A stretch of 64,000 nt of DNA from Thermoanaerobaculia bacterium (GTDB taxonomy: Bacteria > Acidobacteriota > Thermoanaerobaculia > Multivoradales > JAGPDF01), in contig JAGPDF010000007.1 in the NCBI GenBank assembly GCA_018057705.1, positions 1,125 to 65,124 on the forward strand, given 5' to 3'. The notes under the pieces were generated by a model that did not search any database, was not told the DNA's origin, and saw only the letters and a list, made by a program, of their open reading frames with translations. Positions 474 through 52,635 of this stretch are shown here, piece by piece. The first letter of the stretch is position 1. Each line of letters starts with the position of its first letter. A program made the position numbers and the translations under genes.

Positions 474-2003
474 CTAGGGACTCTGCACGGATGACCAGGC
501 GGAGGTCGTTCCCGACGCGAAGCCGTCGCTCCACAGGCCGTCGGGCACGAGGGCGTCGGCCACTCCGTTGATGTACTCCTCGATCGCCGTCCAGCCGGAC
601 GGCATCACCGTCGAGTGGTCGGCTCCGTTCGCCGGGTTCAGACCGTGGGTGAGCTCCCAGGCGTCGGCCATGCCATCGGCGTCGTTGTCGACCGGCGGCG
701 TGCCGGGGGTCAGGCCGTCGAGCCAGTTCGCGGGGCGGCGATTACCCCACGCGCCGGTGCGGGTGGCGACGTCCTCCACCGCCCACCGGTTGACGATGTC
801 GCGCGGGAAACTGCCCACCTTTTCCAGCAGGCCGCTCACCAAAGGGCTCCCGGAGCCGACGCCGATCGGCACGTAGCCGGCGAACGAAGAGAAGTCGAAG
901 GGGCCCGGCGAGGTGAACTGGCTGGCGGCGACGCCGCAGCAGTAGAAGCCGTAGGCGGCTTCGAAGCCCGGCGTGGTGAACGGATTGTCGAAGCGGCCGT
1001 TGAAGTCGCCCGGATCCTCCACCCAGTTGTCCCACGAGTAGTAGCGCGTGGGGATCGGCGGCGACGGGTTTTCGGGGTCGATCCAGAGCGGGACGAGCGC
1101 CGCCGAGGGCCCGTCGATGTACCAGTTCCCGATCAGGTTGAAATCGCCGATCGCGGTCGCGCTGGTGCTGGCCGCGCCCACGAGGTTGTGGTGCACGAAG
1201 CCCTCTCGCCCGTTGTAGACCACGTTGTTGACGACGTCCGCCGGACCGGTCGAGAGCGCCGGCGTGCGGTTGCGGGCGTGGGCGAAGAGATTGTGGTGGA
1301 TCGAAATCCGGCCGCCGAGAGGGTCGGAGGCTCCGCAGCTCGCGTCGTCGATGCAGGCGCGGTGGTTGATGATCCCGCAGTTGTGGGTCCAGCCGTTGCC
1401 CGGGTCGTAGATCGGATAGGTGATCGCCGACCACTGCAGCGTGACGTCGTAGGCGCCGCCCCAGGCGTCGATCGTCTCGTCGGCGCCGTGCGAGGCGTCG
1501 ACGTGGTCGAGGATGAAGGTATGGGCGGTCGAGAACTGGATCGAGTCGTGCTGCGACGCAGGCCAGTCGCCGCCCGGGTCCGGCGGTCGGACGCGCAGGT
1601 GCCGGAGGATCATGTTGTTCGTCGGGTCGCCAAAGTCGGTGTAGAGGTGCCCGAGGATCGTGATCCCGGCGCCGGTCGCCGTCTGACCGGCGATCGTGAC
1701 GTCGCCGTGGGGAATGCGGACGTCGCCCTGGATCAGGCCGGAGACCCGGAAGACGATGATTCGCGGCCCCGCCTGGTCGAGCGCCCACTGCAGGCTGCCG
1801 GAACCCGAGGTGTTGAGGTTCGTGACCCGCAACACCTGGCCACCGCGACCGCCGGTCGCTTTGGCGCCGAATCCCTGGGCGCCGGGGAAGGCCTGAAGGT
1901 CGCCCGCGTGCGCCGGGGCCGCCGGAGCCACCGGAGCCACCGGAGCCACGCCCAACGCCAGCGATGCGATGACGGCTCCGAGTGATGAGGTGATCTTTTT
2001 CAT
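474..2003 (-). CDS. Secreted pectate lyase-like right-handed beta-helix enzyme (PL1 / Pec_lyase_C-like). It carries a C-terminal Ca-binding TSP3-like motif (DNDADGMADAWE) and the conserved C-terminal tail ...LWSDGFASGTTSAWSSVQSP.
   Basis: Signal peptide MKKITSSLGAVIASLALG; N-terminal AFPGAQGFGAKATGGRGGQVLRVTNLNTSGSGSLQWALDQAGPRIIVF matches the pectate lyase / Amb allergen signature; HHN...RNRTP...VVNNVVYN core motifs. Confidence 0.75.
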   Translation of the reverse strand: MKKITSSLGAVIASLALGVAPVAPVAPAAPAHAGDLQAFPGAQGFGAKATGGRGGQVLRVTNLNTSGSGSLQWALDQAGPRIIVFRVSGLIQGDVRIPHGDVTIAGQTATGAGITILGHLYTDFGDPTNNMILRHLRVRPPDPGGDWPASQHDSIQFSTAHTFILDHVDASHGADETIDAWGGAYDVTLQWSAITYPIYDPGNGWTHNCGIINHRACIDDASCGASDPLGGRISIHHNLFAHARNRTPALSTGPADVVNNVVYNGREGFVHHNLVGAASTSATAIGDFNLIGNWYIDGPSAALVPLWIDPENPSPPIPTRYYSWDNWVEDPGDFNGRFDNPFTTPGFEAAYGFYCCGVAASQFTSPGPFDFSSFAGYVPIGVGSGSPLVSGLLEKVGSFPRDIVNRWAVEDVATRTGAWGNRRPANWLDGLTPGTPPVDNDADGMADAWELTHGLNPANGADHSTVMPSGWTAIEEYINGVADALVPDGLWSDGFASGTTSAWSSVQSP

Positions 2004-2092
2004 GTGCGGCGCGAGGCTAGCACGCGCTCGCGCAGGCGATATTCAGTGCTCCACAGACGAAAGCCGCAGGCGAATCGAGCACGCGGGGCCGG

Positions 2093-3196
2093 TCAGGTGG
2101 CAGCGACCTGTTCCGACTCGTCTTCGGCCTCGAGCGTCGGCGGCAGTCCGAAGGCGGCGAAGAGGTCGGGTCCGAAGGTGAGGATCTCTGCGATCGCCCC
2201 CTCCTCGATCCGCAGCACGTCCATCGCCAGCGCGTTCCAGGCGGGGTCGCCGGCGCGCCGGACGAAGGCCGCCACCGCCGGCAGTCCGTTGGCGCGCGTC
2301 GTCACGCAGCGCAGACGCCCGAACGCCTCCGTGCCGAATCCGGCGTCGACGAACATGCGGAGGATCGCGTCGCGGCCGGCGACGACCCCCACGTCCGGAT
2401 CCGGCGGCATCCGGAACAGCGCGTCCTCGCGGATCAGCGAGACGAGCATCGAAACGTCGGGCCGCTCGGCGGCCTCGACGTAGCGTCGCACCAGCTCGCG
2501 CTCGCCGTCCCCGGCGTCGACACCGGCCGGCCACGCCGGCCGGCGCGGTGGGAGCTCCTTCCGCAGCGTCGCGCGCGCCCGCTGCAGCGCGCTGTTCGCG
2601 GCGGCGACGGAGAGCTCGAGCAGATCGGCCGACTCCTTCGCGGACCAGCCGAGGACGTCGCGCAGGATCAGCGTCGCCCGTTGCAACGGAGGGAGCCGTT
2701 GGATCACGGTGAGGAAGGCGATCTCGATCGTCTCGCGGGTGAGTGCGAGGGCTTCGGGCTCCGAGTCGCGCGGCGCTATCGGATCGAGCGGTTCGAGAAG
2801 TGCGTCCGGGAACGGCTGGAGCCAGGCGATATCGGCAAGCGGGCCGGCGCCAGAAGCTCCGACTTCGGAGGAGGCCGCCAGCGCGGTTCTCCGGGGATCG
2901 CGTGCGATCGCGTCGAGGCAGGCGTTCGTGGCGATCCGGTAGAGCCAGGGGCGGAGCGGCAGGCCCTCCTTGACGCTCTCCCGATAACGCCAGGCGCGCA
3001 GGAACGTCTCCTGCACCGCGTCCTCGGCGTCAGAGAGAGAGCCGAGCATCCGATAGCAATGGACGAGCAGCTCGCGGCGGCGGCGCTCGACGAGCGCCGT
3101 GAAGGCCGTGGCGTCGCCGCTGCGGACGGCGCCCCCCAGCGCCGCGGTTTCGTCCGTCTCGTTCGGGGTCGTCTTTTCGTTCATTGCGCTTCCCAT
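2093..3196 (-). CDS. ECF-type RNA polymerase sigma factor with a ~170-aa C-terminal SnoaL/NTF2-like extension (ECF41/ECF56-like architecture).
   Basis: Region 2 ([17 protein letters not shown]...[17 protein letters not shown]) and region 4 ([39 protein letters not shown]); GGGAGGA RBS 5 nt upstream of the ATG at 3196; no adjacent anti-sigma gene. Confidence 0.85.
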
Positions 3197-4691: not shown

Positions 4692-6065
4692 ATGAGAGGT
4701 GGTTCGACTCGGGGGCGGCGATCCGCTACGACTCGCCTCGTACGGTGGGCCCTGGGGCTGCTGAGCGGCCTCTCTCCAGCGACCGCCCAGGTCTCGCCCG
4801 CTGACGAGCAGTTCCAGGTCAACCTCTTCACTACCAGCTACCAGGCGGTTCCCGAAGTCGCCAGCGACGGCTCGGGAAGGTTCGTCGTCGTCTGGGACAG
4901 CTACGGCTCGACTGGAGGGGATTCGAGCTCCTTCAGCATCCAGGCTCGGCGATTCGCTGCGGACGGCAGTCCCCTGGGCGGACAGTTCCAGATCAACTTC
5001 CACACCACCCTCGCGCAGGAGCATCCGAGCGTCGCGAGCGACAGCGACGGCAACTTCGTGGTCGTCTGGGACAGCAACAGCTCGACCGGGACCGATACCG
5101 ACGGACGGAGCGTGCACGGGCAGCGCTTCGGCGCGAATGGCGCGACGCTCGGCCCGCAGTTCCAGGTCAACCTCGTCACCTCGGGCACGCAAGCGAGCGC
5201 CGCCGTCGCGCGACACTCCCAGGGCAGCTTCGTCATCGTCTGGGAGAGCGCCAGTTCGTTCGGCACGGATACCACCGGTTACAGCATTCAGGCGCAGCGC
5301 TATTCCACCGCGGGAACGCCGCTCGGCGACCCGTTCCAGGTCAACTCCTACACGGCGGGAGACCAGCTCGCTCCCGACGTCGCGATCGACGGGCTCGGGA
5401 ACTTCGTCATCGCCTGGGCGAGCTATGGATCGGGCGGTGACGACACGAGCGGGGACAGCATCCAGGCGCGGCGCTTCGCCCCGGACGGCACGCCACTCGC
5501 TGAGGATTTCCAGGTCAACTCCTACACCACCGGCGTGCAGGGCCAGGCCGCCGTCAGCAGCGATGGCCTGGGAAACTTCGTGGTCGTCTGGACGAGCTCC
5601 GGCTCCGGCGGCACCGATACGTCGGAGTTCAGTGTTCAGGCGCAGCGTTTTGACGCCGTCGGCGACCCGCTCGGCGAAGAGTTTCAGGTCAACAGCCACA
5701 CTCCGAACAAGCAGCTCACGCCCGCCATCGCGAGCGACGCCGGCGGAAACCTCGTCATCGTCTGGGCGAGCGACAGCTCCGAGGGCGGCGACACGAATCT
5801 CCAGAGCATCCAGGCCCGGCGCTACGCGGCGAACGGCACCGCGCTCGACGATCAGTTCCAGGTCAACACCTACACGACCCAGCGCCAATGGACGCCCGCC
5901 GTCTCGAGCGACCCGCGCGGCAACTGGGTCGTCGCCTGGGACAGCACCGGCTCGAGCGGCACCGACACGGCCGGATCCAGCATCCAGGCGCAGCGCTACG
6001 ACGGGCTATTCCGCGATGACTTCGAAACCGGCGGCACCCTCCGCTGGTCTGCCAGCGCCCCCTAG
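4692..6065 (+). CDS. Secreted tandem-repeat protein: 7 x 58-aa repeats (likely a 7-bladed beta-propeller) followed by the conserved C-terminal tail ...LFRDDFETGGTLRWSASAP.
   Basis: Strong RBS AGAGGAAGGAG before the ATG at 4692. N-terminus has an RR-containing signal. Repeats of consensus [QE]FQVN.YTTG.Q..P.VA.D..GNFVVVW.S.GS.G.DT.G.SIQAQRF.A.G.PLG., exactly 174 nt apart. Confidence 0.75.
   Translation: MRGGSTRGRRSATTRLVRWALGLLSGLSPATAQVSPADEQFQVNLFTTSYQAVPEVASDGSGRFVVVWDSYGSTGGDSSSFSIQARRFAADGSPLGGQFQINFHTTLAQEHPSVASDSDGNFVVVWDSNSSTGTDTDGRSVHGQRFGANGATLGPQFQVNLVTSGTQASAAVARHSQGSFVIVWESASSFGTDTTGYSIQAQRYSTAGTPLGDPFQVNSYTAGDQLAPDVAIDGLGNFVIAWASYGSGGDDTSGDSIQARRFAPDGTPLAEDFQVNSYTTGVQGQAAVSSDGLGNFVVVWTSSGSGGTDTSEFSVQAQRFDAVGDPLGEEFQVNSHTPNKQLTPAIASDAGGNLVIVWASDSSEGGDTNLQSIQARRYAANGTALDDQFQVNTYTTQRQWTPAVSSDPRGNWVVAWDSTGSSGTDTAGSSIQAQRYDGLFRDDFETGGTLRWSASAP
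4809..6026 (+). repeat. Seven in-frame tandem coding repeats of 174 nt (58 aa) inside CDS 4692..6065.
   Basis: QFQVN/QFQIN/PFQVN/DFQVN/EFQVN repeat starts at 4809, 4983, 5157, 5331, 5505, 5679 and 5853. Confidence 0.8.
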
Positions 6066-8216: not shown

Positions 8217-9290
8217 TCAGCGGGTCGTGCTGCCGAGCTCCTCGGCGAGGAGCGAGCAGCCCCGCAGGTCGGCTTCCGGGGCGCGGCCGGCGAGACGGAA
8301 GCCGGGGCCGGCGAGGGAGCCGAGGTCTTCGGTGAGCAGGTGCAGCGCCGAGCCGACGTTGGCGAGGTCGAAGAAGGCGAGGAGACCGGTCGCACCGGGC
8401 GGGAGCTCGCGGAGGGTGACTGGATCGAGGACGCGGACCTTCATCCAGTGCGGCGGAACGAAGATTCCCGGGTCGCCGCCGGTGAGCGTGGCGGTGTAGC
8501 ACTGGCTGGTGAGCTCGGTCATGCCGTACTCGCCGACGATCGACTCCGGCGCGATGAACAGCTGCTCTTCGAGCTGGCGGTGGAGCTCTTCGCGTGCGAG
8601 CTCGCGCGCCCGGCCCTTGAAGCCGCCGGTCTCGAAGACCGCCGAGCCCGAAGGCAGGCGAAACCTGAGACCGATACGGCCGAGGAAGTCGAGGAGGTCG
8701 GCGAGCGCGAACGACGTCGTGAGAATCAGCACCGGCCGCCCCTCGCGCTGGCGGGCGCCGAACCAGGAGCGCGTCTTCGCCCCCTCGACGCCGCGCTCAC
8801 CGAAGGCCGAATCGCTCCCGGGTCCGCCGAAGCGCTGCAGCAGGTGGTCGACCATGAAGCCCAAGCTCGAGTCGGGCGCGACAGCGCGCGGCGGCACGAG
8901 TGCGAGCATCGCCGGAAGGTCCTGGGGCCGATCGCCGCGCGGCAGGCAGAAGCGCGGGAAGGACGCATCGATCGCGGCGCGGTAGAGCTCGGGGAAGGGG
9001 TGGGTGTGCACGCTCCGCGTCTCGCCCAGCGTGCCGCTCGAGCGAAACGTCTCCTGCGGCGGATCGGTGGCGAGCTCGACGGTCGCGAACGCCGTCGCGG
9101 GAATCATCGGCACGTCGCGCCACGAGGCCACCGTCGCCGGCGTCCGGCCGGCGCGTTCGCACATCGCGCGATAGGCGGGAAGGCGGTCGAACTGGTAGGC
9201 GAAGCCGTCCAGCGCCAGGCCTTCGAAGTCGGCCGCGGACGAAGCGTGCGGGGGCAGGCGAAGAAGACTGGAGATCCGTTCGACGATCAC
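8217..9290 (-). CDS. Acyl-protein synthetase (LuxE-like) / adenylate-forming enzyme family protein.
   Basis: GTG start; sequence resembles LuxE/PaaK-like acyl-adenylate ligases (…ESIVGEYGMTELTSQCY…GATGLLAFFDLANVGS…). Confidence 0.55.
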   Translation of the reverse strand: MIVERISSLLRLPPHASSAADFEGLALDGFAYQFDRLPAYRAMCERAGRTPATVASWRDVPMIPATAFATVELATDPPQETFRSSGTLGETRSVHTHPFPELYRAAIDASFPRFCLPRGDRPQDLPAMLALVPPRAVAPDSSLGFMVDHLLQRFGGPGSDSAFGERGVEGAKTRSWFGARQREGRPVLILTTSFALADLLDFLGRIGLRFRLPSGSAVFETGGFKGRARELAREELHRQLEEQLFIAPESIVGEYGMTELTSQCYTATLTGGDPGIFVPPHWMKVRVLDPVTLRELPPGATGLLAFFDLANVGSALHLLTEDLGSLAGPGFRLAGRAPEADLRGCSLLAEELGSTTR

Positions 9291-9447: not shown

Positions 9448-10749
9448 TCAGGGGAAGGTCTGACTCCAGGCGGTGCTGTCGCCCGTGCCGAAGCCGTCCA
9501 CGAAGATCAGGTTCGTGTTGGTGAGGAACTCGACCTCGCCGGGCGTGCCGGCCTCGAAGAGCCCCAGGACATGGGTTTCGATCTCGGCCGGCGGCCGGTC
9601 GGCGTCGAACCAGAAGTTGTACATGTTGGCCCAGCGGATCGCATTGGCGTTCTCCGCCGGAGAGAACGCGGGCGAATCCCAGCTCACTTCGTCGACGGTG
9701 ACGGTGTTCCCCCAGTCAGCCGTGTCGTAGGGCTCGTTCGAGTGCGCGTTGACATCGTGGAAGCCGATGTTCTCGAAGGTCGTGGCCCCGAAGAAGCGGA
9801 TTGCCAGCCGATCCGCCGCGCGGGCGGAGTTCATGTTGTGGACGGCATACTCGTAGTGCCAGACACCGGCCGAAGGGTTGGTGACCTTGCGGGCGACATG
9901 GAAGCGCTCGACCGGCACCGACGGGACGTCGACGTTGAGCAGTTCCACCGTCGCATCGATCACCGGCCAGACTTCGATCGCCGACTTCTGACGCACCGTG
10001 CTGCCGACATTCTGCAGGTTGAAGCTGACGGCCTCGACGGAGACCTCACGGTACGAGGCGTTGTTGAGGCCGTTGCCGGACTGGGCGTCGTCGGGGGCGA
10101 TGTACTGACCCTCGATGAAATAGCGCGCCCCCGGGTTGAGCGCAGCGTCGAGGTCGGCCTCGGCGACGGCGGCGCGCTGGTTCCAGATCGTAGCCGTGCT
10201 GCCGCCGCCGCCCTCTGGGAAGGGGAAGACTCCGGTCGTCGGGTTGACTTCGGACTTCCGTCCCATCGGGCGGCCGCCGTTGAGGCTCGACGAGTAGGGG
10301 TCGGTGCAACCGACGCCCAGCTGATTGCCGCCCAGCGGTGGAGCGGCGCAACTGCCGTCGCCGCAGCCGCCGGCGCTCTGGTTGAGCGAAATGAAGCCGT
10401 GCTTCAGCCAGCTGGCGCCGATCTGGTCGAAGCGTCCGTTCTTCAGCCGGTAGATGTTCTGACCGATCACCGGGTGATCGGAGCTGGTGGTCCCGCTGCC
10501 GCAACCGCCATTGACGTCGCACCAGTTGAGCGGCGTGTCGCCGATGTTGCAGGAGGTCGTGCCTACCGAATAGCCGCGGATGCCTCCGGACGCGCCCCAG
10601 TTGGTCGTTCCAGGCAGTTCGTAGACGGTGACGTCCGCCCCGGTGGAGCCGGCCGCTGCGGCTTCGACCCCGAGGAGGGCCAACGTGCAAACCGCGAAGA
10701 GCGCAAGAGTGGTACGAACAGGCAGGTTGCGAACGATTCGATTGTGCAT
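9448..10749 (-). CDS. Secreted protein of unknown function (433 aa), Cys/Gly-rich N-terminal region, ending in the conserved C-terminal tail ...IFVDGFGTGDSTAWSQTFP.
   Basis: Signal peptide MHNRIVRNLPVRTTLALFAVCTLALLGVEAAAAG; GGAGAC RBS; no family recognised. Confidence 0.7.
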   Translation of the reverse strand: MHNRIVRNLPVRTTLALFAVCTLALLGVEAAAAGSTGADVTVYELPGTTNWGASGGIRGYSVGTTSCNIGDTPLNWCDVNGGCGSGTTSSDHPVIGQNIYRLKNGRFDQIGASWLKHGFISLNQSAGGCGDGSCAAPPLGGNQLGVGCTDPYSSSLNGGRPMGRKSEVNPTTGVFPFPEGGGGSTATIWNQRAAVAEADLDAALNPGARYFIEGQYIAPDDAQSGNGLNNASYREVSVEAVSFNLQNVGSTVRQKSAIEVWPVIDATVELLNVDVPSVPVERFHVARKVTNPSAGVWHYEYAVHNMNSARAADRLAIRFFGATTFENIGFHDVNAHSNEPYDTADWGNTVTVDEVSWDSPAFSPAENANAIRWANMYNFWFDADRPPAEIETHVLGLFEAGTPGEVEFLTNTNLIFVDGFGTGDSTAWSQTFP

Positions 10750-38679: not shown

Positions 38680-39573
38680 GTGGAGGCTCTGCGAACGATC
38701 GGGCCGGTGGTCGCGGCGCTAGGCGCCGTGCTCCTCTTCGATCACATGACCCGGAGACGCGGGCTCGACCCGCCCGGATTCCGCGAGCCGCTGCGGCGGA
38801 TCGCCGCGACGTCGCTGGTCGCGTTCAGTTTCTACGTCGGCGTCTTCGCCGCCGTCGGCACGATCGGCAGGCAGGGCGAGATCGACCTCTCCCAGTTGAG
38901 CAGCTGGCAGCTCTTCGCCCTGCACGCACTGTTCGCGCTGACGATCGTCGGCTGGTGGATGGCCGGATTCCTGGCGGTGCCGCGACCCGTTCCGGACATG
39001 TCGGCAGTCGCGGCGGAGCCGGTCGGCGAGACAGCCGCGAGCTCGGCCGCCGGGCCTTCGACCGGCTGGAGGAGCTTCGCCGAGCAGCTGGGAATGCGTA
39101 CGCCGAATCTGCGGCGCGAGCTCGCCCTGGGAATGGTCGCCGGGGTCGGCGCCTGGCTCGCCGTGTTGTGCGCGGTCTTCGTTTTCGCCCTGGTGCTCTC
39201 CGCGCTCTCGGGCGAGGAGCTCCTCCCCCAGGCGCCGCCGGCGGTGATCCCGTGGCTCGCCGGGCGCCCGATCCTCCTGCGCCTGGCGATCGCCGCGTCG
39301 GCTGGACTGGTGGAGGAGGCGTTCTTCCGCGGCTTCCTTCAGCCGCGCATCGGTATCGCGCTCTCGACGGTCTTCTTCGCGCTCGCTCACCTCTCCTACG
39401 ACCAGCCGATCATGCTCGTGGGCGTGACCCTGCTGTCGCTGCTCTACGGACTGCTGACCCGCTGGCGTCAGAACATCTGGCCGGCGATCGTCGCGCACTT
39501 TCTCTTCGACGCCATTCAGCTCCTGGTGGTCATACCGGCGGTCCTCGAGCTCTTCCAGCCCTCGGCGCCGTGA
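38680..39573 (+). CDS. CPBP-family intramembrane metalloprotease (CAAX protease / Abi family).
   Basis: Motifs [15 protein letters not shown] and HFLFD in a multi-TM protein; GTG start. Confidence 0.7.
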
Positions 39574-39653
39574 CGTTCCCGCCCGAATGAAATGAAGGAA
39601 ATCCGGTCTTTTCGTCGGTCCCCGTTCTGCTACACTTCGCCCGGTTTCTACCC

Positions 39654-40130
39654 ATGACTTCGACCGCGGGACGGGAGCTCCATCTGACGATCGGCAGCCG
39701 GTTCGAGAATATCGAGCTGGTGCAGGCGGTCGTGGACGATGCGCTGCGCGAAGGTGGCGCGGCCGAGGACGCCCGGCACTGGATCGGTCTGGCGCTGCGC
39801 GAGGCGGTGGCCAACGCCATCAAGCACGGCAACCGCCAGGACCCCGACAAGCAGGTGGAGATCCAGGCCAGTTTCGACCCGGAGCAGGTGGAGATCCGGG
39901 TCGACGACCAGGGGGCCGGCTTCGATCCGGACGAAGTGGTCGATCCCCTGGCGCCGGAGAACCGTTTTCGCGCCAGCGGTCGGGGCATCTTCTATATGCG
40001 AAAGTTCATGGACGAGGTCGAATTCGAATCCGGCCCCTCGGGAGGGACACGGCTCCGGCTGCGCAAGCGGCTGACCCCCGCCCCCGAGGCCGGCAACATC
40101 TCCAGCAACATCCAACATCACGAACAATAG
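39654..40130 (+). CDS. rsbW: Anti-sigma regulatory factor serine kinase (RsbW/SpoIIAB-like, HATPase_c).
   Basis: ...ALREAVANAIKHGN...VDDQGAGFDP...GRGIFYMRKFMDEV. Confidence 0.75.
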   Translation: MTSTAGRELHLTIGSRFENIELVQAVVDDALREGGAAEDARHWIGLALREAVANAIKHGNRQDPDKQVEIQASFDPEQVEIRVDDQGAGFDPDEVVDPLAPENRFRASGRGIFYMRKFMDEVEFESGPSGGTRLRLRKRLTPAPEAGNISSNIQHHEQ

Positions 40131-40147: not shown

Positions 40148-40483
40148 ATGAAAATCACCAAGCGGGAACGGGATGGCGTGATCATTCTCGAAGTCGAGGG
40201 CAAGGTCACGATCGGCAAAGGTGACGTCGTCCTGCGCGAGACGGTGCACGAGGCGATCGGCGACCGGGCGGTCAAGATGCTGATCAACCTCGGCCAGGTC
40301 AGCACCATCGATTCATCGGGCGTGGGCGAACTGGTGAGCGCCTTCACGACGGTCACGAATCGCGGCGGCAAGCTGAAGCTCGTCAATCTGCCGCCGAAGG
40401 TCAACGACATCCTGCAGATCACCCAGCTGATCACGGTGTTCGAGGTGTTCGAGAGCGAAGACGAAGCCGTCCGATCCTTCTGA
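40148..40483 (+). CDS. rsbV: Anti-sigma factor antagonist (STAS domain, RsbV/SpoIIAA-like).
   Basis: 111 aa; ...LINLGQVSTIDSSGVGELVSAF...GGKLKLVNLPPKVNDILQITQL...; phosphorylatable Ser in DSSG. Confidence 0.8.
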   Translation: MKITKRERDGVIILEVEGKVTIGKGDVVLRETVHEAIGDRAVKMLINLGQVSTIDSSGVGELVSAFTTVTNRGGKLKLVNLPPKVNDILQITQLITVFEVFESEDEAVRSF

Positions 40484-40550: not shown

Positions 40551-41456
40551 GTGGAAGCTCGCCTTCCTGCCCTACTGCCGGCGGAGGACTCGCGCCCCGC
40601 GCACGTTCATCGTGCCATGCGCGCTGCCGTTCTCTCGCCAGGCAAGCGTGTCCGCCCCATGCTGACCCTGGCGGTCGCCGAGATGCTCGGCGGCGCCTCC
40701 GACGACGCACTCGACCTGGCCTGCGCGGTGGAGCTCGTGCACTGCTGCTCCCTCGTGCTCGACGACCTGCCCGCGATGGACGACGCCCACCTCCGGCGCG
40801 GTCGGCCGACGCTGCATCGCGAGCACGGCGAAGACGTCGCGCTGCTCGCCGCGTTCGCCTTGCTCAACCGCGGCTATGCGCTCGTCGCCGAGTCTTCGCA
40901 GCGGCTCCATCTGTCGCGCTACAGCCCGGAAGAGCTCCTGCACCACCTCGCCCAGGCGATCGGCACCGACGGGCTCATCGGTGGTCAGGCGATGGACCTG
41001 GCGAACGGCGGCGCCCCTCCGACGCTCGCCGACCTCGAGTACATCCACAGCCACAAGACGGGCGCCCTCTTTCTCGCCGCGGCGGAGCTCGGCGCGATGG
41101 CGGTCGACGCGCGGCGGCGGGATCTGGCGGCGATCGGTGCTTTCGCGAAGAACCTCGGGCTCGCCTTCCAGATCGAGGACGATCTCCTCGACGTCCTCGC
41201 GACGAGCGCGGAGACCGGCAAGGACGAGGGTCAGGATGCCTCGAAGGTGACCTTCGTGAAGCTGCTCGGCGTCGCTGGGGCGCGCTCTCTCGCCGACGAG
41301 CTGCTCGCGTTCGCCCTCGCGTCGGTAGCGCCGTTCGGACGCAAGGCCGAGGTGCTGTGCAGACTGGTCGAGTTCGTGGCCGGCTACGGCAACCTGGGGA
41401 GTCGGCAGGTGACGTTGACGGGTGCGGGCGGAGGGGGCCGGACGGGCGATGAGTGA
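40551..41456 (+). CDS. Polyprenyl diphosphate synthase (FPP/GGPP synthase family).
   Basis: First and second Asp-rich motifs LVLDDLPAMDD and FQIEDDLLD; GTG start; 8-nt overlap with the downstream gene. Confidence 0.8.
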   Translation: MEARLPALLPAEDSRPAHVHRAMRAAVLSPGKRVRPMLTLAVAEMLGGASDDALDLACAVELVHCCSLVLDDLPAMDDAHLRRGRPTLHREHGEDVALLAAFALLNRGYALVAESSQRLHLSRYSPEELLHHLAQAIGTDGLIGGQAMDLANGGAPPTLADLEYIHSHKTGALFLAAAELGAMAVDARRRDLAAIGAFAKNLGLAFQIEDDLLDVLATSAETGKDEGQDASKVTFVKLLGVAGARSLADELLAFALASVAPFGRKAEVLCRLVEFVAGYGNLGSRQVTLTGAGGGGRTGDE

Positions 41457-43287
41457 TCCGCGCGAGCTCGAGATCGCGCGGCGCGAGCTGCAGCGGCTCG
41501 GCTACCTGTCGCACCGCGTGGAGCGCTTCCTCTTGCGCGATGCCCTCGCTCCCGTGGGCGATCCGCGCGCGCTGGCGCACCTGGCGTGGAAGGTCGGACT
41601 ACTCGCCGGTATGCTTCTGGCGCTCGCCAACACCCTGGCCCTGGCGGCGGCCAACGGGCTCTTCGCCGCTGCGCCAGCCGATCTCCTGCCGCTGTTCCTT
41701 CACCTCCTGCCGCCGCTGGTCATCGCATCCGCCGCCGGATTCGTCGCCGTCGTCGCCGGCTTCCTCTTCGCGCTCAAGCTCTTCCCGCGGCGCAGTCTCG
41801 AATGGCTGATTCTCGGCGTGACGTTCGTCGCCACCGCGCTGCTCTTCGGCTGGGCCGTCCTGCGGGCCTGGGATCTCCTGCTCGGGTTGCCGCGCTGGCA
41901 GCGCGTCGTCGCCGGCATCGCCCTGCCGCTGGTCGCGGCGGCGGTGGCGAAGCTCCTGGCGAACGGGCTGCTCTCGATCGCCATCCGCATGACCCGCATG
42001 ACGCCGAGAGAGCGCCTGGTCTCGCGCCGCACCATCCTCGCCGTGACCGGCTCGATCCTGGCAATCGTCGCCACGGTCGCCTTCGTCGTGCCGCAGCGGG
42101 CTCCGGCCGCAGCGCCCGCCTCCCTGCCGAAGGCGGCCGGCGAGCGTGTCCTGTTGGTGGGGCTCGACGGCATTCTCGCCGAGGAGTTCGACTATCTGGT
42201 GGCGCGGGGCGCTCTGCCGGCCATCTCGGGACTGATGCGCGACGGGGCGGTCGTGGCGAGCTACGCGCGCGCCGCGGAGCTCGAACCGGCGGAGTTCTGG
42301 ACGACCGTGGCGACGGGCGTCGGCGGCGAGCTCCATGGGGTGCGATCGCTGGACAGTTTCCGGCCGACCGGACTAGAGACGGCTCTCGCGCGGAGCGGGC
42401 CCTGGCGATTCTGGTGGTCCGGGGTGGCCGTGCCGCTGGGCCTTGCCGAGCATCGACCGCTGCTCGCCAACCGCCGGGCAGCTTTTACCTTCTGGGAGCT
42501 CTCGGCGCGCGGCGGAGCGCCGGCCGCGGCGGTCGACTGGTGGGCGACCTTCCCGCCCGAGCCGCTCGCCGGGCTGGTGGTCGCGCACGGCGCTTTCCAG
42601 CTTCTGCTGGATGGGCACCTGAGTGCCGTGGCGCCGGCCGATCGCGCGCCGGATCTCGCCCGGTTGGCCCGGGCGACCGAGCCCGGGCCTTCGGGCTCGA
42701 CCCTGGAGGCAGCGCTGCCGGCCAAGCTCGCCGAAGAGCTGCTCCGGCGCGCGGTTCTCCCCGATCGCTTCTACCGCGAGGTCGCGCGCCGCGAGGCCGC
42801 TGACCGACCCGAGGCCATGGCGCTCTACCTTCCGGCCATCGATCTGCTCGCCGAGGGCTGGATCGGAGGGGACGTTGCCCTGGCCGACCTGGTGCGCGCC
42901 GAGCTCGAAGAGGCCGACCGCCTGATCGGCGGGCTGATGGAGGGCGTCGGCACCCTTGTGGTCGTGCTCGATCCCGGCCGCAGGAAAGGCGGCATGGGGA
43001 GGATGGGCAGGGTGGGGCGGGTTCTCTTCGCTCATCCGGCGCCGGATCCGCGCGCGATCTGCCGGGGTGGAGCCGATCTGCAGGTGGCTCCCGAGGCGGT
43101 CGCTGCCGCCCTGATCCGCGCCCTGGGCCTGCCGCAGAGTGCGGAGCTTCCCGAACCGCCCGGCTTTTGCTCCTGGCCGGAGCCGCCGGCGCGGGTCTCC
43201 GGCTTCGGCGAACGCTCGCCGGGCGGGGAACGACCCGGTGACAGCCGGGACTATCTCGAAAACCTGCGCTCGCTGGGATACCTCTAG
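41448..43287 (+). CDS. Polytopic membrane protein with a C-terminal alkaline-phosphatase-superfamily (type I phosphodiesterase/nucleotide pyrophosphatase-like) domain.
   Basis: Six hydrophobic segments in the first ~200 aa; RVLLVGLDG...LP...PAEFWTTVATGVGGELHGV matches the Phosphodiest/AlkP core; translationally coupled to the polyprenyl synthase. Confidence 0.6.
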
Positions 43288-43385: not shown

Positions 43386-43943
43386 TCAGTTCGACCAGCT
43401 GTCGGTCGTGCCGCCTTCGAAACTGTCGGCGAACAGCGGCTCGGCCGGGCGTTGCACGGTGCTCATACGGTCGGCGGCTGCGACACCGGCAGACCCGGCG
43501 GGAAGCGGCGCCGTCCGGCCGAGATCCAGTCGCAAGCCGACACTGGCGGCGATCAGCAGCATCGCTGCCGCGGCGAAACCCAGCCAGCGGCGACTGGAGA
43601 ACGCGGCGAGCGCGGCGGACGCCGCCGGGGCGACCCGGCGCTCGGCGGGCACGACCTTCAACCGGTCGCGCAAGGCCACCAATTCGTCGAATTCACGCTG
43701 CAGCAGCGGATCGCCGGCGAGCCGGCTGGAGAAAAGCTCCGCTTCGACAGGGTCGAGTGTACCGTCCACCGCCGCCTCGAGCTGCTCGTACTCCGGCGAT
43801 TCCTCGTCGCGTTCGCCGCGCACCAGCAGGCCCTCGAACGCGACGGCCAGGTCGGCCTCGGCGCGAAGCGTCTCGTCCACCGGGGTCACCGGGCTGGACG
43901 GGAGGGCGGGAGTGGGCAGGAGTCGCAGGTTCGGACGGTTCAT
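43386..43943 (-). CDS. Anti-sigma factor (single TM) whose extracytoplasmic tail ends in the conserved C-terminal tag ...LFADSFEGGTTDSWSN.
   Basis: N-terminal anti-sigma-like helix (EYEQLEAAVDGTLDPVEAELFSSRLAGDPLLQREFDEL); TM WLGFAAAAMLLIAASVGL; sits 63 nt downstream of the ECF-like sigma gene. Confidence 0.55.
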   Translation of the reverse strand: MNRPNLRLLPTPALPSSPVTPVDETLRAEADLAVAFEGLLVRGERDEESPEYEQLEAAVDGTLDPVEAELFSSRLAGDPLLQREFDELVALRDRLKVVPAERRVAPAASAALAAFSSRRWLGFAAAAMLLIAASVGLRLDLGRTAPLPAGSAGVAAADRMSTVQRPAEPLFADSFEGGTTDSWSN

Positions 43944-44006: not shown

Positions 44007-45125
44007 TCAGCCCTCCCATTCCGAGGCGCCTTCCGAAGGACGCGGACGCAGCCGCCGGGCGAGCCGCGCGCGGGCGCTCTTCCTCAGGTTGATGACCTGC
44101 CGGGCGGTGAGGTCGAAGCGCTGGGCGATGGTCCGGTCGTCGAGCGGCAGCTCATCCCAGAGCTCCCGGAGCTCCGGCTCGGGCAGGTCGAGGAGTCGGG
44201 CGAGGTCCGCGCGGGAGGCAAGTCCCGTGAGCGTCAGGAGGGTCAGCCGGTCCCGCCCCTGCTCGTCCCGCAGATTGAGCAGCAGGGCCCGCCGCTGTCC
44301 CAGGGGCAGCTCGCGGACCTCGCTCCAGAGGGCCGCCAGGAACTGGCGCCCTTCGAGCTCCCGGTGAGCCCCGGCGCGCGTTTCGGGCAAATCGAGGCCA
44401 GGCTGCGGATCGGCGCCCTCGGTGCCCGCGCTCGCCGCGCTCTCGCCAGAGAGGGAGAGCGGCGGGCGGTCCTGCACATCGAGCAGGTCGGCGGCAGCTT
44501 TCTGCAGATCGCGGAAGCCCCAGGGTCCTCCGCGCCAGAGCAGCAGGCGCCGCACGAGCTCCGGCAGCGGCAGCGCGCGGGCCGGGCCCGAGAGCGCCAG
44601 GTCGCGCGCCTGGGGAGCGTCGGACTTCGCGCCGGCTCGGGCCGTCCCCTCGGAGGTGGCTCCGGAGGCCGCAGCGCCGCCGGACGAGCCGTCTCGCCAG
44701 GCGGCGAAGCCGCAGAGGAGCGCTCCATCCCTGCCTTCCCAGAGCGCCAGCTCCTCGTCGTGGCGCAGGAGGTAGCGCAGCTGGTTCTGCAACCGGGTGC
44801 GTTCCGGGTGGCGGGCGCGCAGCCAGGCCCGGCAACCGTTGGCGCCCGTCGCCGCGACATAGGCGCGAAAGCTCTCGATCTCGACTTCCGGATCTCCCGA
44901 CAACCACTGCTGGAGCCGCTCTGTCAGCCGAAGAAGGGCGGCGGCATGGACCTCCTCCTGATCGGCCGCCGGCACGCCGCCCAGCTGGCTTCGGATCGTT
45001 CGCCAGAGCAGCGGCGCGGCCTCGCCGAGCAGCAGCCGGCCCAGAGCCTCGCTGGCGGCTGCCGGCCCACGTTCGGCCGCCGACCGCAGCGTGGCGAGCA
45101 GGGGATCGATGGCGAGCGCCTTCAC
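44007..45125 (-). CDS. Divergent ECF-like sigma-70 family factor (372 aa) with an extended linker/insert between regions 2 and 4.
   Basis: GTG start overlapping the MFS stop (GTGA). The region-2-like segment is EEVHAAALLRLTERLQQW...FRAYVAATGANGCRAWLRARHPER. The region-4.2 HTH is RTIAQRFDLTARQVINLRKSARARLARRL. The remainder of the 812-aa ORF is artefact. Confidence 0.55.
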   Translation of the reverse strand: MKALAIDPLLATLRSAAERGPAAASEALGRLLLGEAAPLLWRTIRSQLGGVPAADQEEVHAAALLRLTERLQQWLSGDPEVEIESFRAYVAATGANGCRAWLRARHPERTRLQNQLRYLLRHDEELALWEGRDGALLCGFAAWRDGSSGGAAASGATSEGTARAGAKSDAPQARDLALSGPARALPLPELVRRLLLWRGGPWGFRDLQKAAADLLDVQDRPPLSLSGESAASAGTEGADPQPGLDLPETRAGAHRELEGRQFLAALWSEVRELPLGQRRALLLNLRDEQGRDRLTLLTLTGLASRADLARLLDLPEPELRELWDELPLDDRTIAQRFDLTARQVINLRKSARARLARRLRPRPSEGASEWEG

Positions 45126-46387
45126 CCTGGCACTGCCGGCCCGCCGGCCGCGAAGAGCAACACCGTCGCGGCGCACGCGGCGAGGGCGGCGCCGGCGAGA
45201 AAGGCCGCTGAAGGCCCGAAGAGCTGCCAGACGACTCCAAACCAGAGACTGGCGAGGAACGTTCCGACGCCTGCGGCGAGGTGGAACGCGCCGAGTGCAC
45301 TGCCGGCGCCCGGTGGGCTGGCTCCGGCGGCGCCGGGGCCAGCTGAGCCACCCGCACCGGCGAGCTCGACCACCAGCGCCCGTTCGGCGCCTTCGGTGAG
45401 ACCGTAGAAGGCGGCATAGAGCGCGAGCAGGGCGGCGAGCGCCGCGGGCTGTGCCGTGACCGCGAAGCCCGTGTAGGCGATGGCGTACAAGGTCCAGCCG
45501 AGCAGGATGGCGGGCCGGCGGCCGATACGGTCGGCGAGTTTGCCGCCGGGAGCCGAAGCGAGCCACTTCACGACATGGAATGCCGACCAGAGGAGAGTGA
45601 GGCCGACCGCTCCGATGCCGATTTCGGCGGCCCGCAGCAGGAGAAAGGCGTCGCTCGCATTGCCCAGCGCGAAACAGAAGAAAGCGGCCAGAGCCCCGCG
45701 CAGTGGCCCGGGGAGAGGCTCGGACCGCGCCCCGAGCGAAGGGGCGGCGCCCCGGCCGCCGACCGCCGGCGGGGAGCGCCGGGTGGTCTCGCGCGGCAGG
45801 CCGAAAGCGACAGTCAGGAAGCCGGCGAGGGCCGGGAGCGTCGCGACCAGGAAAACCGTCCGCAAGGCGCCGGGCGAGAAGAGCAGGAGGACCGCCGCGA
45901 GGAGGGGGCCGCAGGCGGCGCCCAGGTGGTCGAGGCCGCGGTGATAGGAGAAGGCATAGGCGCGCTCGCCGGGTGCGACCGCCTCGGCGATCAGGGCGTC
46001 GCGCGGCGCCGTGCGCAGGCCCTTGGCGAGCCGGTCCCAGAGCCGCAACGAAATGACCTGGGCGGCGGTGGTGGCGAGCGCGAGCAGGGGTCGCGCCAGC
46101 GCCGACGCGCCGTAGCCGGCGACGACGAAGGGCTTGCGCCGCCCGAGTCGATCGCTCGCCCGGCCGGCCCAACCCTTGACCAGCGCCAGGACGCCCTCGG
46201 CGGCTGACTCCATCGCGCCGAGCACTGCCGCGCCGCCTCCCAGCGCCGCCAGGAAGCCCGGGAGCAGGGGGTACACCATCTCGCTCGCGACGTCCTGGAA
46301 GAACGAACCGGCTCCGAGCCGTCGCACGGTCGGCGGCAGGTCTCGCCCGCGATAGGCGCGCAGGAGGGCCGGGGAGGAGGGGCTCAC
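45122..46387 (-). CDS. MFS transporter.
   Basis: 12-TM profile, G(R/K)xxDRxGRR motif (GRASDRLGRRKP); GTG start overlapping the upstream SBP stop. Confidence 0.7.
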   Translation of the reverse strand: MSPSSPALLRAYRGRDLPPTVRRLGAGSFFQDVASEMVYPLLPGFLAALGGGAAVLGAMESAAEGVLALVKGWAGRASDRLGRRKPFVVAGYGASALARPLLALATTAAQVISLRLWDRLAKGLRTAPRDALIAEAVAPGERAYAFSYHRGLDHLGAACGPLLAAVLLLFSPGALRTVFLVATLPALAGFLTVAFGLPRETTRRSPPAVGGRGAAPSLGARSEPLPGPLRGALAAFFCFALGNASDAFLLLRAAEIGIGAVGLTLLWSAFHVVKWLASAPGGKLADRIGRRPAILLGWTLYAIAYTGFAVTAQPAALAALLALYAAFYGLTEGAERALVVELAGAGGSAGPGAAGASPPGAGSALGAFHLAAGVGTFLASLWFGVVWQLFGPSAAFLAGAALAACAATVLLFAAGGPAVPG

Positions 46388-47985
46388 GGCGGGTCGATTC
46401 TCTCCCGCTCGGTGCCTTCGCGCTCGCCTCTTTCGCGGTCGGCATTTTCCCGCCCCGCCCAGTACATCGTGCGCAGGCTGTGGAGTTCGCCGCTCGGATA
46501 GTGGCGATAGCCCACGAGGCCGGCCGGGTGGACGGCGACGTTGACCTTCGTGAACAGTGAGAGATAGGGCAAGTCGTGCGCCACGATCTGCTGCGCTTCG
46601 ACGTAGAGCGGCCGACGCGCAGCGCGGTCGGGGAGGCGCGCGCCCTGCTCGACGAGCTCGTCGAAGCGCGGATTGGAGTAGCGCCCGCGGTTGGACCCGG
46701 CCGGCGGTACGCGCTGCGAGTGCAGAATGAGCATGTAGATGTCGGGGTCGGCGATCCCCGTCCACGTCAGGCTGAAGAGCTGGAAGTTGCCGCGCTTGAT
46801 GTCGGCGTAGAACGTCGCGAACTCGTAGGAGCGGATTTCGACATCGACGCCGATCTCGCGCCACATCGACTGGAGGATCTGTGCCTGCAGGACGGCGGTT
46901 TCGTCGGTCGACGTCTTGTAGGTGAGGCGCAGGCGCGGCTCCGGCCCGCTCCCGTCCGGGTCGGGGAAGCCGGCCTCGTCGAGCTGGGCGCGGGCCGCCG
47001 CCGGGTCGAAGGGCGTCGCGGGGAGATCGTCGTTCCTCGCCCAGTTCCCGGGTGGGAGGAGGGTCTCGGTGACGACGCCGAGGCCTCGCCAGAGCGTGCG
47101 CACCAGCTTCTCCCGGTCGAGCGCCAGGGCGAGGGCGCGCCGCACGCGGCGATCGGCGAGCAGCGGATCGGTCAGGTTCAGGCCGAGGTAGACGTAGTTC
47201 GCGCCGCTCGCGGCCGGCACGCTGAAGCGCGGGTCGGCGCGAAAGAGCGGCACGACGTCGGGCGGCAGGGCGTTCACCACCAGCTGAACGCTGCCTTTGC
47301 GCAGCTCGAGCACGCGCACCGTGGCCTCCGGGATCTCGCGCAGCACGACGCGGTCGAGCCGCGGCCGGCCGCGGTAGTGGGCGTCGAACGCCGCGAGCTC
47401 GATGGTGTCGGCGGTGCGCGAGACGAAGCGGAACGGGCCGGTGCCGACCGGCTGCCGGTTCATCGCTTCGGGCGTCGAGCCCGACGGTACGATACCCAGA
47501 TACGAAGTGAGGTTCGGCAGCAGAGCTCCGAACGGCTCCGAGAGCACGAAGTCGACGGTGGTCGCGTCGATCGCGACGACCCGCTGCAGGAAGGCGAAGG
47601 CGCCGCGCTTCGAGCTGGCGACCGTGCCGTCGAGCAGGGTCTCGAAGGTCCACGCGACATCCTCGGCCCCGAAGGTCGAACCGTCGTGGAAGAGAATGCC
47701 GGGGCGCAGGTGAAAGCGCCAGCGCGCTCCGAGATCGAGCACTTCCCACGACTCCGCGAGATCGGGCAGGAAGTCGCCGCTCTCGTCCTTCGTCACCAGC
47801 CCGTCGAGGATGAGCTCGAAGACGCGGCTCGAGGCCTGGTCGGTCGCGACCCGTGGATCGAGATGGATCGGTGCGCTTTCGAGCGCGACGGTGAGGGAGT
47901 TGTCTGCCGGCGGGCGGGGGGGCGGTGCCGGGCCGCAGGCCGCGACGAGAAGCGCCAGCGGGAGGAGGCCGGCCCTCAGTACCAT
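46384..47985 (-). CDS. ABC-transporter family-5 substrate-binding lipoprotein (OppA/DppA-like).
   Basis: Lipobox LLVAACG; SBP_bac_5-like sequence throughout. No cognate permease or ATPase genes adjacent; an MFS gene follows instead. Confidence 0.75.
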   Translation of the reverse strand: MVLRAGLLPLALLVAACGPAPPPRPPADNSLTVALESAPIHLDPRVATDQASSRVFELILDGLVTKDESGDFLPDLAESWEVLDLGARWRFHLRPGILFHDGSTFGAEDVAWTFETLLDGTVASSKRGAFAFLQRVVAIDATTVDFVLSEPFGALLPNLTSYLGIVPSGSTPEAMNRQPVGTGPFRFVSRTADTIELAAFDAHYRGRPRLDRVVLREIPEATVRVLELRKGSVQLVVNALPPDVVPLFRADPRFSVPAASGANYVYLGLNLTDPLLADRRVRRALALALDREKLVRTLWRGLGVVTETLLPPGNWARNDDLPATPFDPAAARAQLDEAGFPDPDGSGPEPRLRLTYKTSTDETAVLQAQILQSMWREIGVDVEIRSYEFATFYADIKRGNFQLFSLTWTGIADPDIYMLILHSQRVPPAGSNRGRYSNPRFDELVEQGARLPDRAARRPLYVEAQQIVAHDLPYLSLFTKVNVAVHPAGLVGYRHYPSGELHSLRTMYWAGRENADRERGEREGTERERIDPP

Positions 47986-49136: not shown

Positions 49137-49227
49137 CGGATTCGCGCTCACCGGGCGCCTTGATGCTAGCACTGCGATGTTCGGCCGCCGGCCTCGAACG
49201 GTGGCGATTTCCAAAGGAGCTTCCGAA

Positions 49228-52577: not shown

Positions 52578-52635
52578 TGGCGCCACGGCAGCCCCCTGTT
52601 CGCCGCCGCTGCATCCGAACCCGCCGCCGGATAAG

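Follow-up and report, generated by a model that had tools for sequence, protein, structure and literature searches.

Four unrelated proteins encoded in a 64,000-nucleotide stretch of DNA from a Thermoanaerobaculia bacterium (Acidobacteriota; contig JAGPDF010000007.1 of assembly GCA_018057705.1, positions 1,125 to 65,124 of the forward strand; hereafter the window) end in the same short peptide tail. Judged from its sequence and distribution, this tail is real, strongly non-random, widespread in the sampled metagenome-assembled genomes (MAGs) of Acidobacteriota, and apparently undescribed. We propose, with a probability of about 0.45, that it is a lineage-specific extracytoplasmic address or docking tag, which would be bound in trans by strand insertion into, or edge addition to, a beta-sandwich partner, the cargo being retained or routed at the envelope.

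The four tails, 16-20 residues long, had been reported in an earlier note on this DNA and are found where it placed them, each closing a long open reading frame (ORF) with high GC3, as expected for real genes of this genome (the window has a G+C content of 69.6%). They are LWSDGFASGTTSAWSSVQSP (477-536, reverse strand, stop TAG at 474-476), at the end of a pectate-like lyase; LFRDDFETGGTLRWSASAP (6006-6062, forward strand, stop TAG at 6063-6065), at the end of a repeat protein; IFVDGFGTGDSTAWSQTFP (9451-9507, reverse strand, stop TGA at 9448-9450), at the end of an exported protein without family assignment; and LFADSFEGGTTDSWSN (43389-43436, reverse strand, stop TGA at 43386-43388), at the end of an anti-sigma factor. 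The anti-sigma variant of the tail is FADSFEGGTTDSWSN. A regular-expression scan of the whole window in six frames found exactly these four copies and no internal one, with a stop 1-6 residues beyond each, while 300 residue shuffles of the six frames gave 0.0 matches against the 4 observed. With random placement in the six-frame translation, a motif lies within six residues of a stop in 6.8% of cases, so that four out of four near a stop would be expected by chance with a probability of about 2e-5.

Without their tails the four carriers show no mutual similarity (best BLASTP E = 2.5). At the DNA level the 42-nucleotide tail cores are 52-64% identical and have no common sequence downstream, which argues that the similarity was selected at the protein level and rules out a DNA-level repeat or a mobile cassette. 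The same proteins with the same tails are present in GCA_020054605.1, GCA_018062225.1, wastewater metagenomes of the ENA and Logan runs, and cluster members from other samples show small variations with the motif kept. Truncation of a known domain by the assembly, which the earlier note had named as a possible undoing of its proposal, is ruled out since independent assemblies encode the same tails. Read-through into a downstream domain is likewise ruled out, since the sequence continues neither in any other frame nor in a gene further downstream.

To extend the analysis beyond the window, DNA from one genome for each of 185,579 species was scanned for F-x-D-G-F-E-x-G-x4-W, which gave at least 120 loci, listed in unknown order. 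Among the 124 matches listed with a downstream stop, this stop lies within 8 residues in 89 cases, at 9-30 residues in 5 and further away in 30. A motif common at random positions would likewise have counted against a tag, and this is not what is seen. The consensus derived from the tails is [ILV]-F-x-D-G-F-E-S-G-D-T-S-A-W-S-x-T-V-P-stop, 19 residues in length. It is tighter and longer than the consensus proposed earlier, and the stop falls exactly five residues past the Trp in 59 of the 91 tails whose stop lies 0-11 residues after it. In these 91 tails, positions that the search left unfixed are also biased (numbering relative to the first Phe): I, L or V at -1 (83 tails), S or T at +6 (77), D or N at +8 (68), T at +9 (54), A at +11 (52), S or T at +13 (74) and P at +17 (52). 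Pro is the last residue in 64 of them, as in three of the four window tails. Some tails finish at W, WS or WSN. The fetched loci contain seven extra C-terminal tails outside the search pattern, which are thus independent finds.

Nearly all hosts of the C-terminal form, every one a MAG, are labelled Acidobacteriota (Thermoanaerobaculia, Thermoanaerobaculales, Holophagae, 'Multivoradales', 'Sulfomarinibacteraceae' and unclassified Acidobacteriota); apart from these there are two 'Deltaproteobacteria' MAGs, a 2-kb contig labelled 'Pirellulaceae' and a small number of unclassified bins. On this indicative picture, the tail is a lineage-wide feature within part of this phylum. A synthetic query of three consensus copies retrieved 820 proteins with E up to 10 from 5.8 billion; among the best 120 of these 820, 98 of 118 motifs lie at most 8 residues from the C-terminus; all 120 proteins are short fragments, so that this is no census. 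A profile of the four window tails, run against an index of 5.8 billion proteins, retrieved two fragments of orthologues of the unassigned protein and nothing else; orthologue fragments of this protein keep the tail (IFLDGFGSGDSTAWSLAFP).

The description of the tail as a C-terminal tag holds for the overwhelming majority of copies and not for a minority, which have the same ending and stand right after a signal peptide (P0195, P0204, P0286 and P0252) or between domains (P0193), with 'WSxTVP' kept. These copies, together with the tails ending at W, WS or WSN, imply that a free C-terminus is probably not the recognised feature; the sequences point to a self-contained module of 19 residues. In P0195, P0204, P0252, P0286 and locus L089 (reverse strand, a 277-residue stretch), the full module including 'WSxTVP/G' precedes a different domain, 40 to 260 residues long. 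The continuation in L089 starts '...EVYRLTDLDLRDPHL...' and has no Pfam match. Such proteins may belong to the partner system, or be further cargo that bears its tag at the opposite end.

Which proteins bear the tail? The 65 complete carriers contain 68 Pfam families in all, and 58 of these carriers have a signal-peptide-like N-terminus by a simple heuristic of hydrophobicity and charge; for several of the remaining seven, the start codon looks miscalled. The most frequent domains are Peptidase_S8 (7), Beta_helix (6), InhA-like MAM (6) and FG-GAP (5), and further ones are BNR, C25, M14, M28, glucose/sorbosone dehydrogenase, cadherin-like, PKD and CBM_4_9. Cargo lists of this kind occur in PEP-CTERM or type IX systems. 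This diversity agrees with the earlier proposal of a modular tag on unrelated extracytoplasmic proteins, and in the window the lyase, the repeat protein and the unassigned protein all have signal-peptide-like N-termini.

The lyase shows what the tail replaces. It is a secreted PL1-type right-handed beta-helix pectate-like lyase of 509 residues with a signal peptide (474-2003, reverse strand); it matches NCBIfam PelZ with E 8.8e-28, under the family cut-off, and its AlphaFold2 model (mean predicted local distance difference test score, pLDDT, 86.5) has as its best Foldseek match 9buj PfPL1 (E 3.2e-18), many pectate lyases coming next. In an exhaustive HMMER search with the lyase, nearly all alignments of the best 150 cluster representatives end around residue 486, just before the tail. 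The tail itself is present in about four of these 150, for instance P0010, which ends in IFEDGFESGDTSTWQ. Other homologues carry, in its place, a Gly/Ser/Pro linker and a MYXO-CTERM (P0005, P0012 and P0024; TIGR03901, 21-23 bits against a cut-off of 20), a GlyGly-CTERM (P0037; 17.6 bits against 15.5) or further domains (P0003 and P0014). The helix '...GYTAIEEYINxLAD' precedes the tail in the lyase and precedes the MYXO-CTERM, GlyGly-CTERM or further domains in homologues. As read from these alignments, the tail holds the same slot as known sorting domains and is interchangeable with MYXO-CTERM or GlyGly-CTERM in homologues of one enzyme; one enzyme family with alternative C-terminal anchors is, in sequence terms, a classic signature of a sorting or anchoring module.

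Two elements of the lyase directly precede the tail (residues ~430-486): an acidic loop resembling thrombospondin type 3, DNDADGMADAWE, and the conserved helix GWTAIEEYINGVADAL. Both are also kept in homologues that end in MYXO-CTERM or GlyGly-CTERM and, since they stand ahead of different anchors, this segment may be a common stalk.

The tail resembles the known C-terminal systems (PEP-CTERM/exosortase, MYXO-CTERM/myxosortase, GlyGly-CTERM/rhombosortase, LPXTG/sortase and IPTL-CTERM) in being a short C-terminal module on many unrelated exported proteins of certain lineages. It differs from these sortase-type tags in having no hydrophobic stretch, basic cluster, signature Cys, PEP or LPXTG, and in being occasionally N-terminal or internal. 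The hidden Markov models (HMMs) for PEP-CTERM, MYXO-CTERM, GlyGly-CTERM, IPTL-CTERM and LPXTG (PF07589, TIGR03901, TIGR03501 and others) match neither the four proteins nor seven isolated tails with E up to 10, and the same library does detect TIGR03901 and TIGR03501 in homologues of the lyase. Similarly, the heuristic that finds neither a hydrophobic run nor an Arg/Lys cluster in the tails detects such ends in lyase homologues and in locus L040, from a Thermoanaerobaculia MAG. The earlier statements that the tail is non-hydrophobic, belongs to none of these types and corresponds to no described sorting signal are thus upheld, no description of it having been found in Pfam, NCBIfam release 20, the PDB sequence set or the open-access full-text literature. 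Lacking a membrane anchor and not being a folded domain, it is unlikely to be handled by a sortase-type machinery.

Locus L040 also contains two adjacent paralogues (969-2931, forward strand) with an IPTL-CTERM-like end, VVEIPTLSRSGLAALALLMAAAGL...R, recognised by eye, a few kilobases from a tail-bearing gene. Lineages bearing the tail thus appear to use classical membrane-anchored tags as well, and the two systems appear to be separate.

The fourth carrier is the anti-sigma factor (43386-43943, reverse strand), a single-pass protein of 185 residues assigned from weak NCBIfam anti-sigma matches and the topology of its AlphaFold2 model, and called 'anti-sigma factor RsiW' in source annotations. 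Its predicted layout comprises a helical cytoplasmic domain, a transmembrane helix (residues ~112-142), a variable periplasmic linker and the tail, on the non-cytoplasmic side. A search gave 41 proteins. Intact orthologues, with identities down to 45%, account for 39 of them, and all 39 end in [LV]-F-x-D-S-F-E-x-G-x-T-x-x-W-S-N-stop; the other two (P0346 and P0347) have garbled C-termini and are apparently frameshifted. Close homologues lacking the tail, which would have spoken against a tag, were looked for and it is retained throughout the close orthologues. In an alignment of 29 orthologues the linker from the membrane helix to the tail is hypervariable in sequence and in length (~20 to 55 residues), while the 15-residue tail (F.DSFE.G.T..WSN) contains 9 of the protein's 28 invariant columns. 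The tail is thus the sole conserved periplasmic element of this protein. The alignments show it under strong constraint here, and it behaves, as far as sequence can tell, as a ligand on a flexible tether.

Where does the tail come from? The earlier note saw in it a resemblance to the first strand of CBM4_9 and other jelly-roll domains, and indeed the motif opens complete domains in Chloroflexota, Actinomycetota, Armatimonadota and archaea. The 30 matches far from a stop are mostly in Chloroflexia, Ktedonobacterales, Acidimicrobiia, Solirubrobacterales, Armatimonadota and Vicinamibacteria, and also in archaea; most of them start a domain of ~170-220 residues with a 'YFDDV'-like last strand, often in tandem arrays. 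These domains match PF14099 (Polysacc_lyase, concanavalin-like fold) from profile position 1 (best E 7.5e-10) and, weakly, CBM_4_9 over profile positions 1-50 (E 7e-4 to 0.1), which identifies the motif as the first strand and turn of a concanavalin-like jelly roll. All the motif-opened domains are still recovered when the first strand is left out of the HMMs. Two full domains of this type found no relative among solved structures by sequence, and the consensus tail matched in the PDB sequence set only the hemophore HasA, at chance level (E 0.14).

The first-strand motif, (hydrophobic)-x-[ND]-G-x-F-E-x-G-...-W, is present in the tail, and the likeness to strand 1 of CBM4_9, PF14099 and LamG-type jelly rolls, [ILV]F.DGFE[SG]G[DN].S.W[ST], includes positions that the search left unfixed. 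However, the remaining ~130-200 residues of a complete beta-sandwich are absent from the tail, whose stop comes 0-11 residues after the Trp in the 91 cases counted. The tail also has a signature that the jelly-roll strand lacks, namely T-S-A before the Trp and x-T-V-P after it, then the stop. In one Thermoanaerobaculia MAG (L067), a full CBM4_9-like domain comes after a signal peptide; this domain has both a first strand of its own (NCGFETDTSGW) and a last strand (VLIDDVNAV), and the tail LFADGFETGDTSLWSSAVTP directly follows it. In another locus of one Thermoanaerobaculia MAG (L103), a complete C-terminal jelly roll starts with the motif. The simplest origin suggested by these sequences would be a tandem jelly-roll array cut after the first strand of the next unit.

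In the AlphaFold2 model of the lyase, tail residues 493-508 have pLDDT values of ~35-46, below 50, and make no contact with the beta-helix. In that of the anti-sigma factor, for which every alignment row carries the tail, the tail is a coil with pLDDT ~50-57. The models thus show no docking of the tail in cis in these two carriers. The invariant tail residues are two Phe, one Trp, Asp, Glu and two Gly; in CBM4, CBM22 and CBM6 structures such residues pack in the core, bind structural calcium or form a turn. As these would be the residues that are buried or metal-bound in a folded jelly roll, strand insertion or edge addition is favoured as the mode of binding.

Sorting, anchoring and donation of a strand, the roles suggested in the earlier note, are still candidates. 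Our preferred reading, the docking tag, can be set out as a sequence of events. The tag would be added, almost always C-terminally, to many unrelated Sec-exported proteins, on which it would remain unstructured and unpacked while free. A common envelope partner would then bind it in trans, as an inserted or edge strand of a beta-sheet, and this binding would route or hold the cargo at the envelope, the role that MYXO-CTERM and GlyGly-CTERM play in homologues of other phyla. The anti-sigma factor, of the extracytoplasmic function (ECF) type, would display the same tag and report the state of the partner, being displaced, for example, when untransported cargo accumulates. As no periplasmic part of this protein other than the tag is conserved, the cell appears to couple transcription to the state of the partner that handles the tag. 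In mechanism this recalls donor-strand complementation (chaperone-usher and type V pili) and cohesin-dockerin pairs, in which a terminal peptide plugs into a receptor fold; the parallel would be one of principle, as the tail has no sequence relationship with either.

Several observations weigh against this reading. No partner was found: no dedicated neighbour gene recurs in the ~900 kb of carrier loci (606 ORFs from the window and 120 loci), where the recurrent tail-free neighbours belong to common families (Ser/Thr kinases, two-component proteins, ECF sigma factors and glycosyltransferases). Strand-less HMMs found no jelly roll without its first strand, that is, no incomplete-fold receptor of the kind that donor-strand systems use, in the window or in these ~900 kb. 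Conserved gene order at the anti-sigma operon extends into housekeeping genes and so points to no partner. The low pLDDT of a short terminal peptide excludes docking in cis only weakly, all the more so for the lyase, where few alignment rows hold the tail. The signal-peptide calls come from a heuristic and not from a trained predictor, and the unknown order of the listed loci makes the taxonomic picture indicative and no census. The sequence data are also compatible with a tag that is kept or cleaved, and with cargo destined for the surface, the periplasm or the medium.

Could the tail instead be an outer-membrane export signal in the style of type IX secretion, cleaved by a translocon or peptidase that perhaps attaches the cargo covalently to a surface glycolipid? 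Proteases, lyases and adhesin-like repeats with Sec signal peptides make up a cargo resembling type IX and PEP-CTERM sets, and the tail is overwhelmingly C-terminal and fills the slot of known sorting domains. Like the type IX C-terminal domain of Bacteroidota, it is a non-hydrophobic, beta-type C-terminal signal on Sec-exported hydrolases and adhesins. However, the type IX domain folds into an Ig-like structure of 70-100 residues, whereas the tail has 19 residues (16-20 in the window), is modelled as coil, matches no Pfam or NCBIfam model over its length, including Por_Secre_tail, and occurs in a different phylum. N-terminal and internal copies are unexpected for a signal threaded from the C-terminus, an inner-membrane protein bearing the tail is hard to square with export as its sole role, and no translocon candidate was found. 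We therefore regard an export signal as doubtful. The anti-sigma factor suggests another comparison, with sigma-E stress sensing, in which DegS senses C-terminal YxF peptides of outer-membrane proteins: there too (YxF, DegS and RseA) a motif of many exported proteins is tied to an inner-membrane anti-sigma factor, except that here the anti-sigma factor itself bears the motif, instead of a protease sensing the motif on other proteins. With this precedent for joining C-terminal motifs to an anti-sigma factor, and with an S41 C-terminal processing peptidase containing a PDZ domain in the window (52342-53880), the tail might be a recognition peptide for a PDZ protease (Prc/CtpA or DegS-like), serving degradation or quality control, the same protease cleaving the anti-sigma factor. 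But the last residues are dispensable, as the tails ending in W, WS or WSN illustrate, the conserved positions are 6-18 residues away from the end, and the N-terminal and internal modules indicate that a free carboxyl end is not a conserved feature. The S41 gene, moreover, is flanked by those for an M23 peptidase and for a polysaccharide deacetylase, an arrangement common in Gram-negative genomes, and its order is common to relatives as general synteny. A protease signal of this kind seems improbable to us.

Two further explanations start from the jelly-roll ancestry of the tail. It could be a minimal calcium-dependent hairpin fixing cargo to lipopolysaccharide, exopolysaccharide or another surface glycan: its parent strand belongs to carbohydrate-binding-type jelly rolls, its invariant residues include D, E and a D/N three residues apart, and in CBM4, CBM22 and CBM6 the Asp and Glu of the first strand are often in a structural calcium site. 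A single strand, however, cannot make the cleft of a carbohydrate-binding module, the conserved pattern of aromatic residues and glycines is that expected for burial in a protein core, and the PDB sequence set offers no precedent, so we would be surprised if glycan binding were its function. Alternatively, the tail may act in cis, capping or stabilising the preceding domain, or be the relic of a lost C-terminal jelly roll. Tandem arrays in other phyla, cut after a first strand, would give exactly this tail, and the complete C-terminal jelly roll of L103 starts with the motif. Yet the preceding domains have unrelated folds, the tail is undocked in the AlphaFold2 models, and a relic would neither hold a 19-residue consensus over many paralogues and genomes nor be the sole conserved periplasmic element of 39 intact anti-sigma orthologues. 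Both the cis role and the relic strike us as very improbable.

A more specific form of the docking-tag proposal, which we put forward as unlikely but worth stating, is that the orphan strand, borne by many exoproteins, completes or extends a strand-deficient jelly-roll receptor in the envelope of Thermoanaerobaculia and Holophagae, through which the cell would build a surface coat of enzymes without membrane anchor or sortase; the anti-sigma factor would then be a decoy cargo that reports receptor occupancy and adjusts expression. If so, the principle would be new to protein sorting: an orphan strand would complement a fold in trans, and a decoy anti-sigma factor would monitor this. Strand insertion, if true, might also provide a small natural affinity or docking tag. 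Wastewater, soils and sediments commonly contain Thermoanaerobaculia and Holophagae, most of which are uncultured. In any MAG, the 19-residue tag marks proteases, lyases and adhesin-like exoproteins, and it points to an undescribed sorting or docking machine; the tailed anti-sigma factor suggests a feedback circuit from export load to transcription. The tag merits an HMM in curated libraries.

The remaining two carriers are both exported. The repeat protein (4692-6065, forward strand) has seven 58-residue repeats, FQVN..T...Q..P.VA.D..G.FVVVW.S..S.G.D....SIQAQRY. This family, with seven or more repeats, has no Pfam match and is, from its sequence, probably a beta-propeller; it is also present at two other Acidobacteriota MAG loci (L040, 5225-6673, reverse strand; L094, 2-661, forward strand), and the tail is found in all three examples. 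The unassigned protein (9448-10749, reverse strand, 433 residues) has no family match in Pfam or NCBIfam. Directly downstream of its gene lies one for a LuxE-like acyl-protein synthetase (8217-9290, reverse strand), a pairing kept in every assembly that has both genes (L001, L002 and L004).

Directly upstream of the anti-sigma gene is that of a putative divergent ECF-type sigma factor (44007-45107, reverse strand). It matches TIGR02937 (sigma70-ECF) with E 3.4e-4, under the cut-off, profile positions 10-165 being spread over residues 30-353; it is unusual in its long insert, which sets regions 2 and 4 ~200 residues apart. Further upstream lies an MFS gene (~45122-46400, reverse strand), and the order MFS, sigma, anti-sigma is kept at three related loci (L127, L128 and L129), whose anti-sigma factors are 51-58% identical. 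In L128 a gene for outer-membrane phospholipase A precedes these three; in the window the phospholipase A gene (47976-49565) is ~1.5 kb past the MFS gene. The sigma, anti-sigma, MFS and phospholipase A group looks like an envelope or lipid stress unit. Among the small carriers of the fetched loci there is no second anti-sigma-like one, the short ones being contig-edge fragments.

Two large membrane proteins with an alkaline-phosphatase-type 'Phosphodiest' domain (41422-43287 and 48988-51414, both forward strand) flank the sigma/anti-sigma pair, and one such gene is convergent with the anti-sigma gene in the window and at all three related loci. Proteins of this superfamily move phospho-groups to targets in the periplasm. 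A CPBP/Rce1-like intramembrane protease (38680-39573, forward strand) belongs to the myxosortase superfamily, yet scores far under the Mrt family cut-offs. It adjoins a partner-switching pair, a HATPase_c_2 kinase (39591-40130, forward strand) and a 111-residue ORF (40148-40483, forward strand) that is STAS by position, as in L127 and L128; the arrangement is syntenic in relatives.

Finally, four loci (L066 and L098, reverse strand; L092 and L078, forward strand) have perfect tails with an in-frame stop 5-15 codons upstream. Each may represent a carrier gene broken by a frameshift in a draft MAG, or else a very small peptide consisting of the tail alone.

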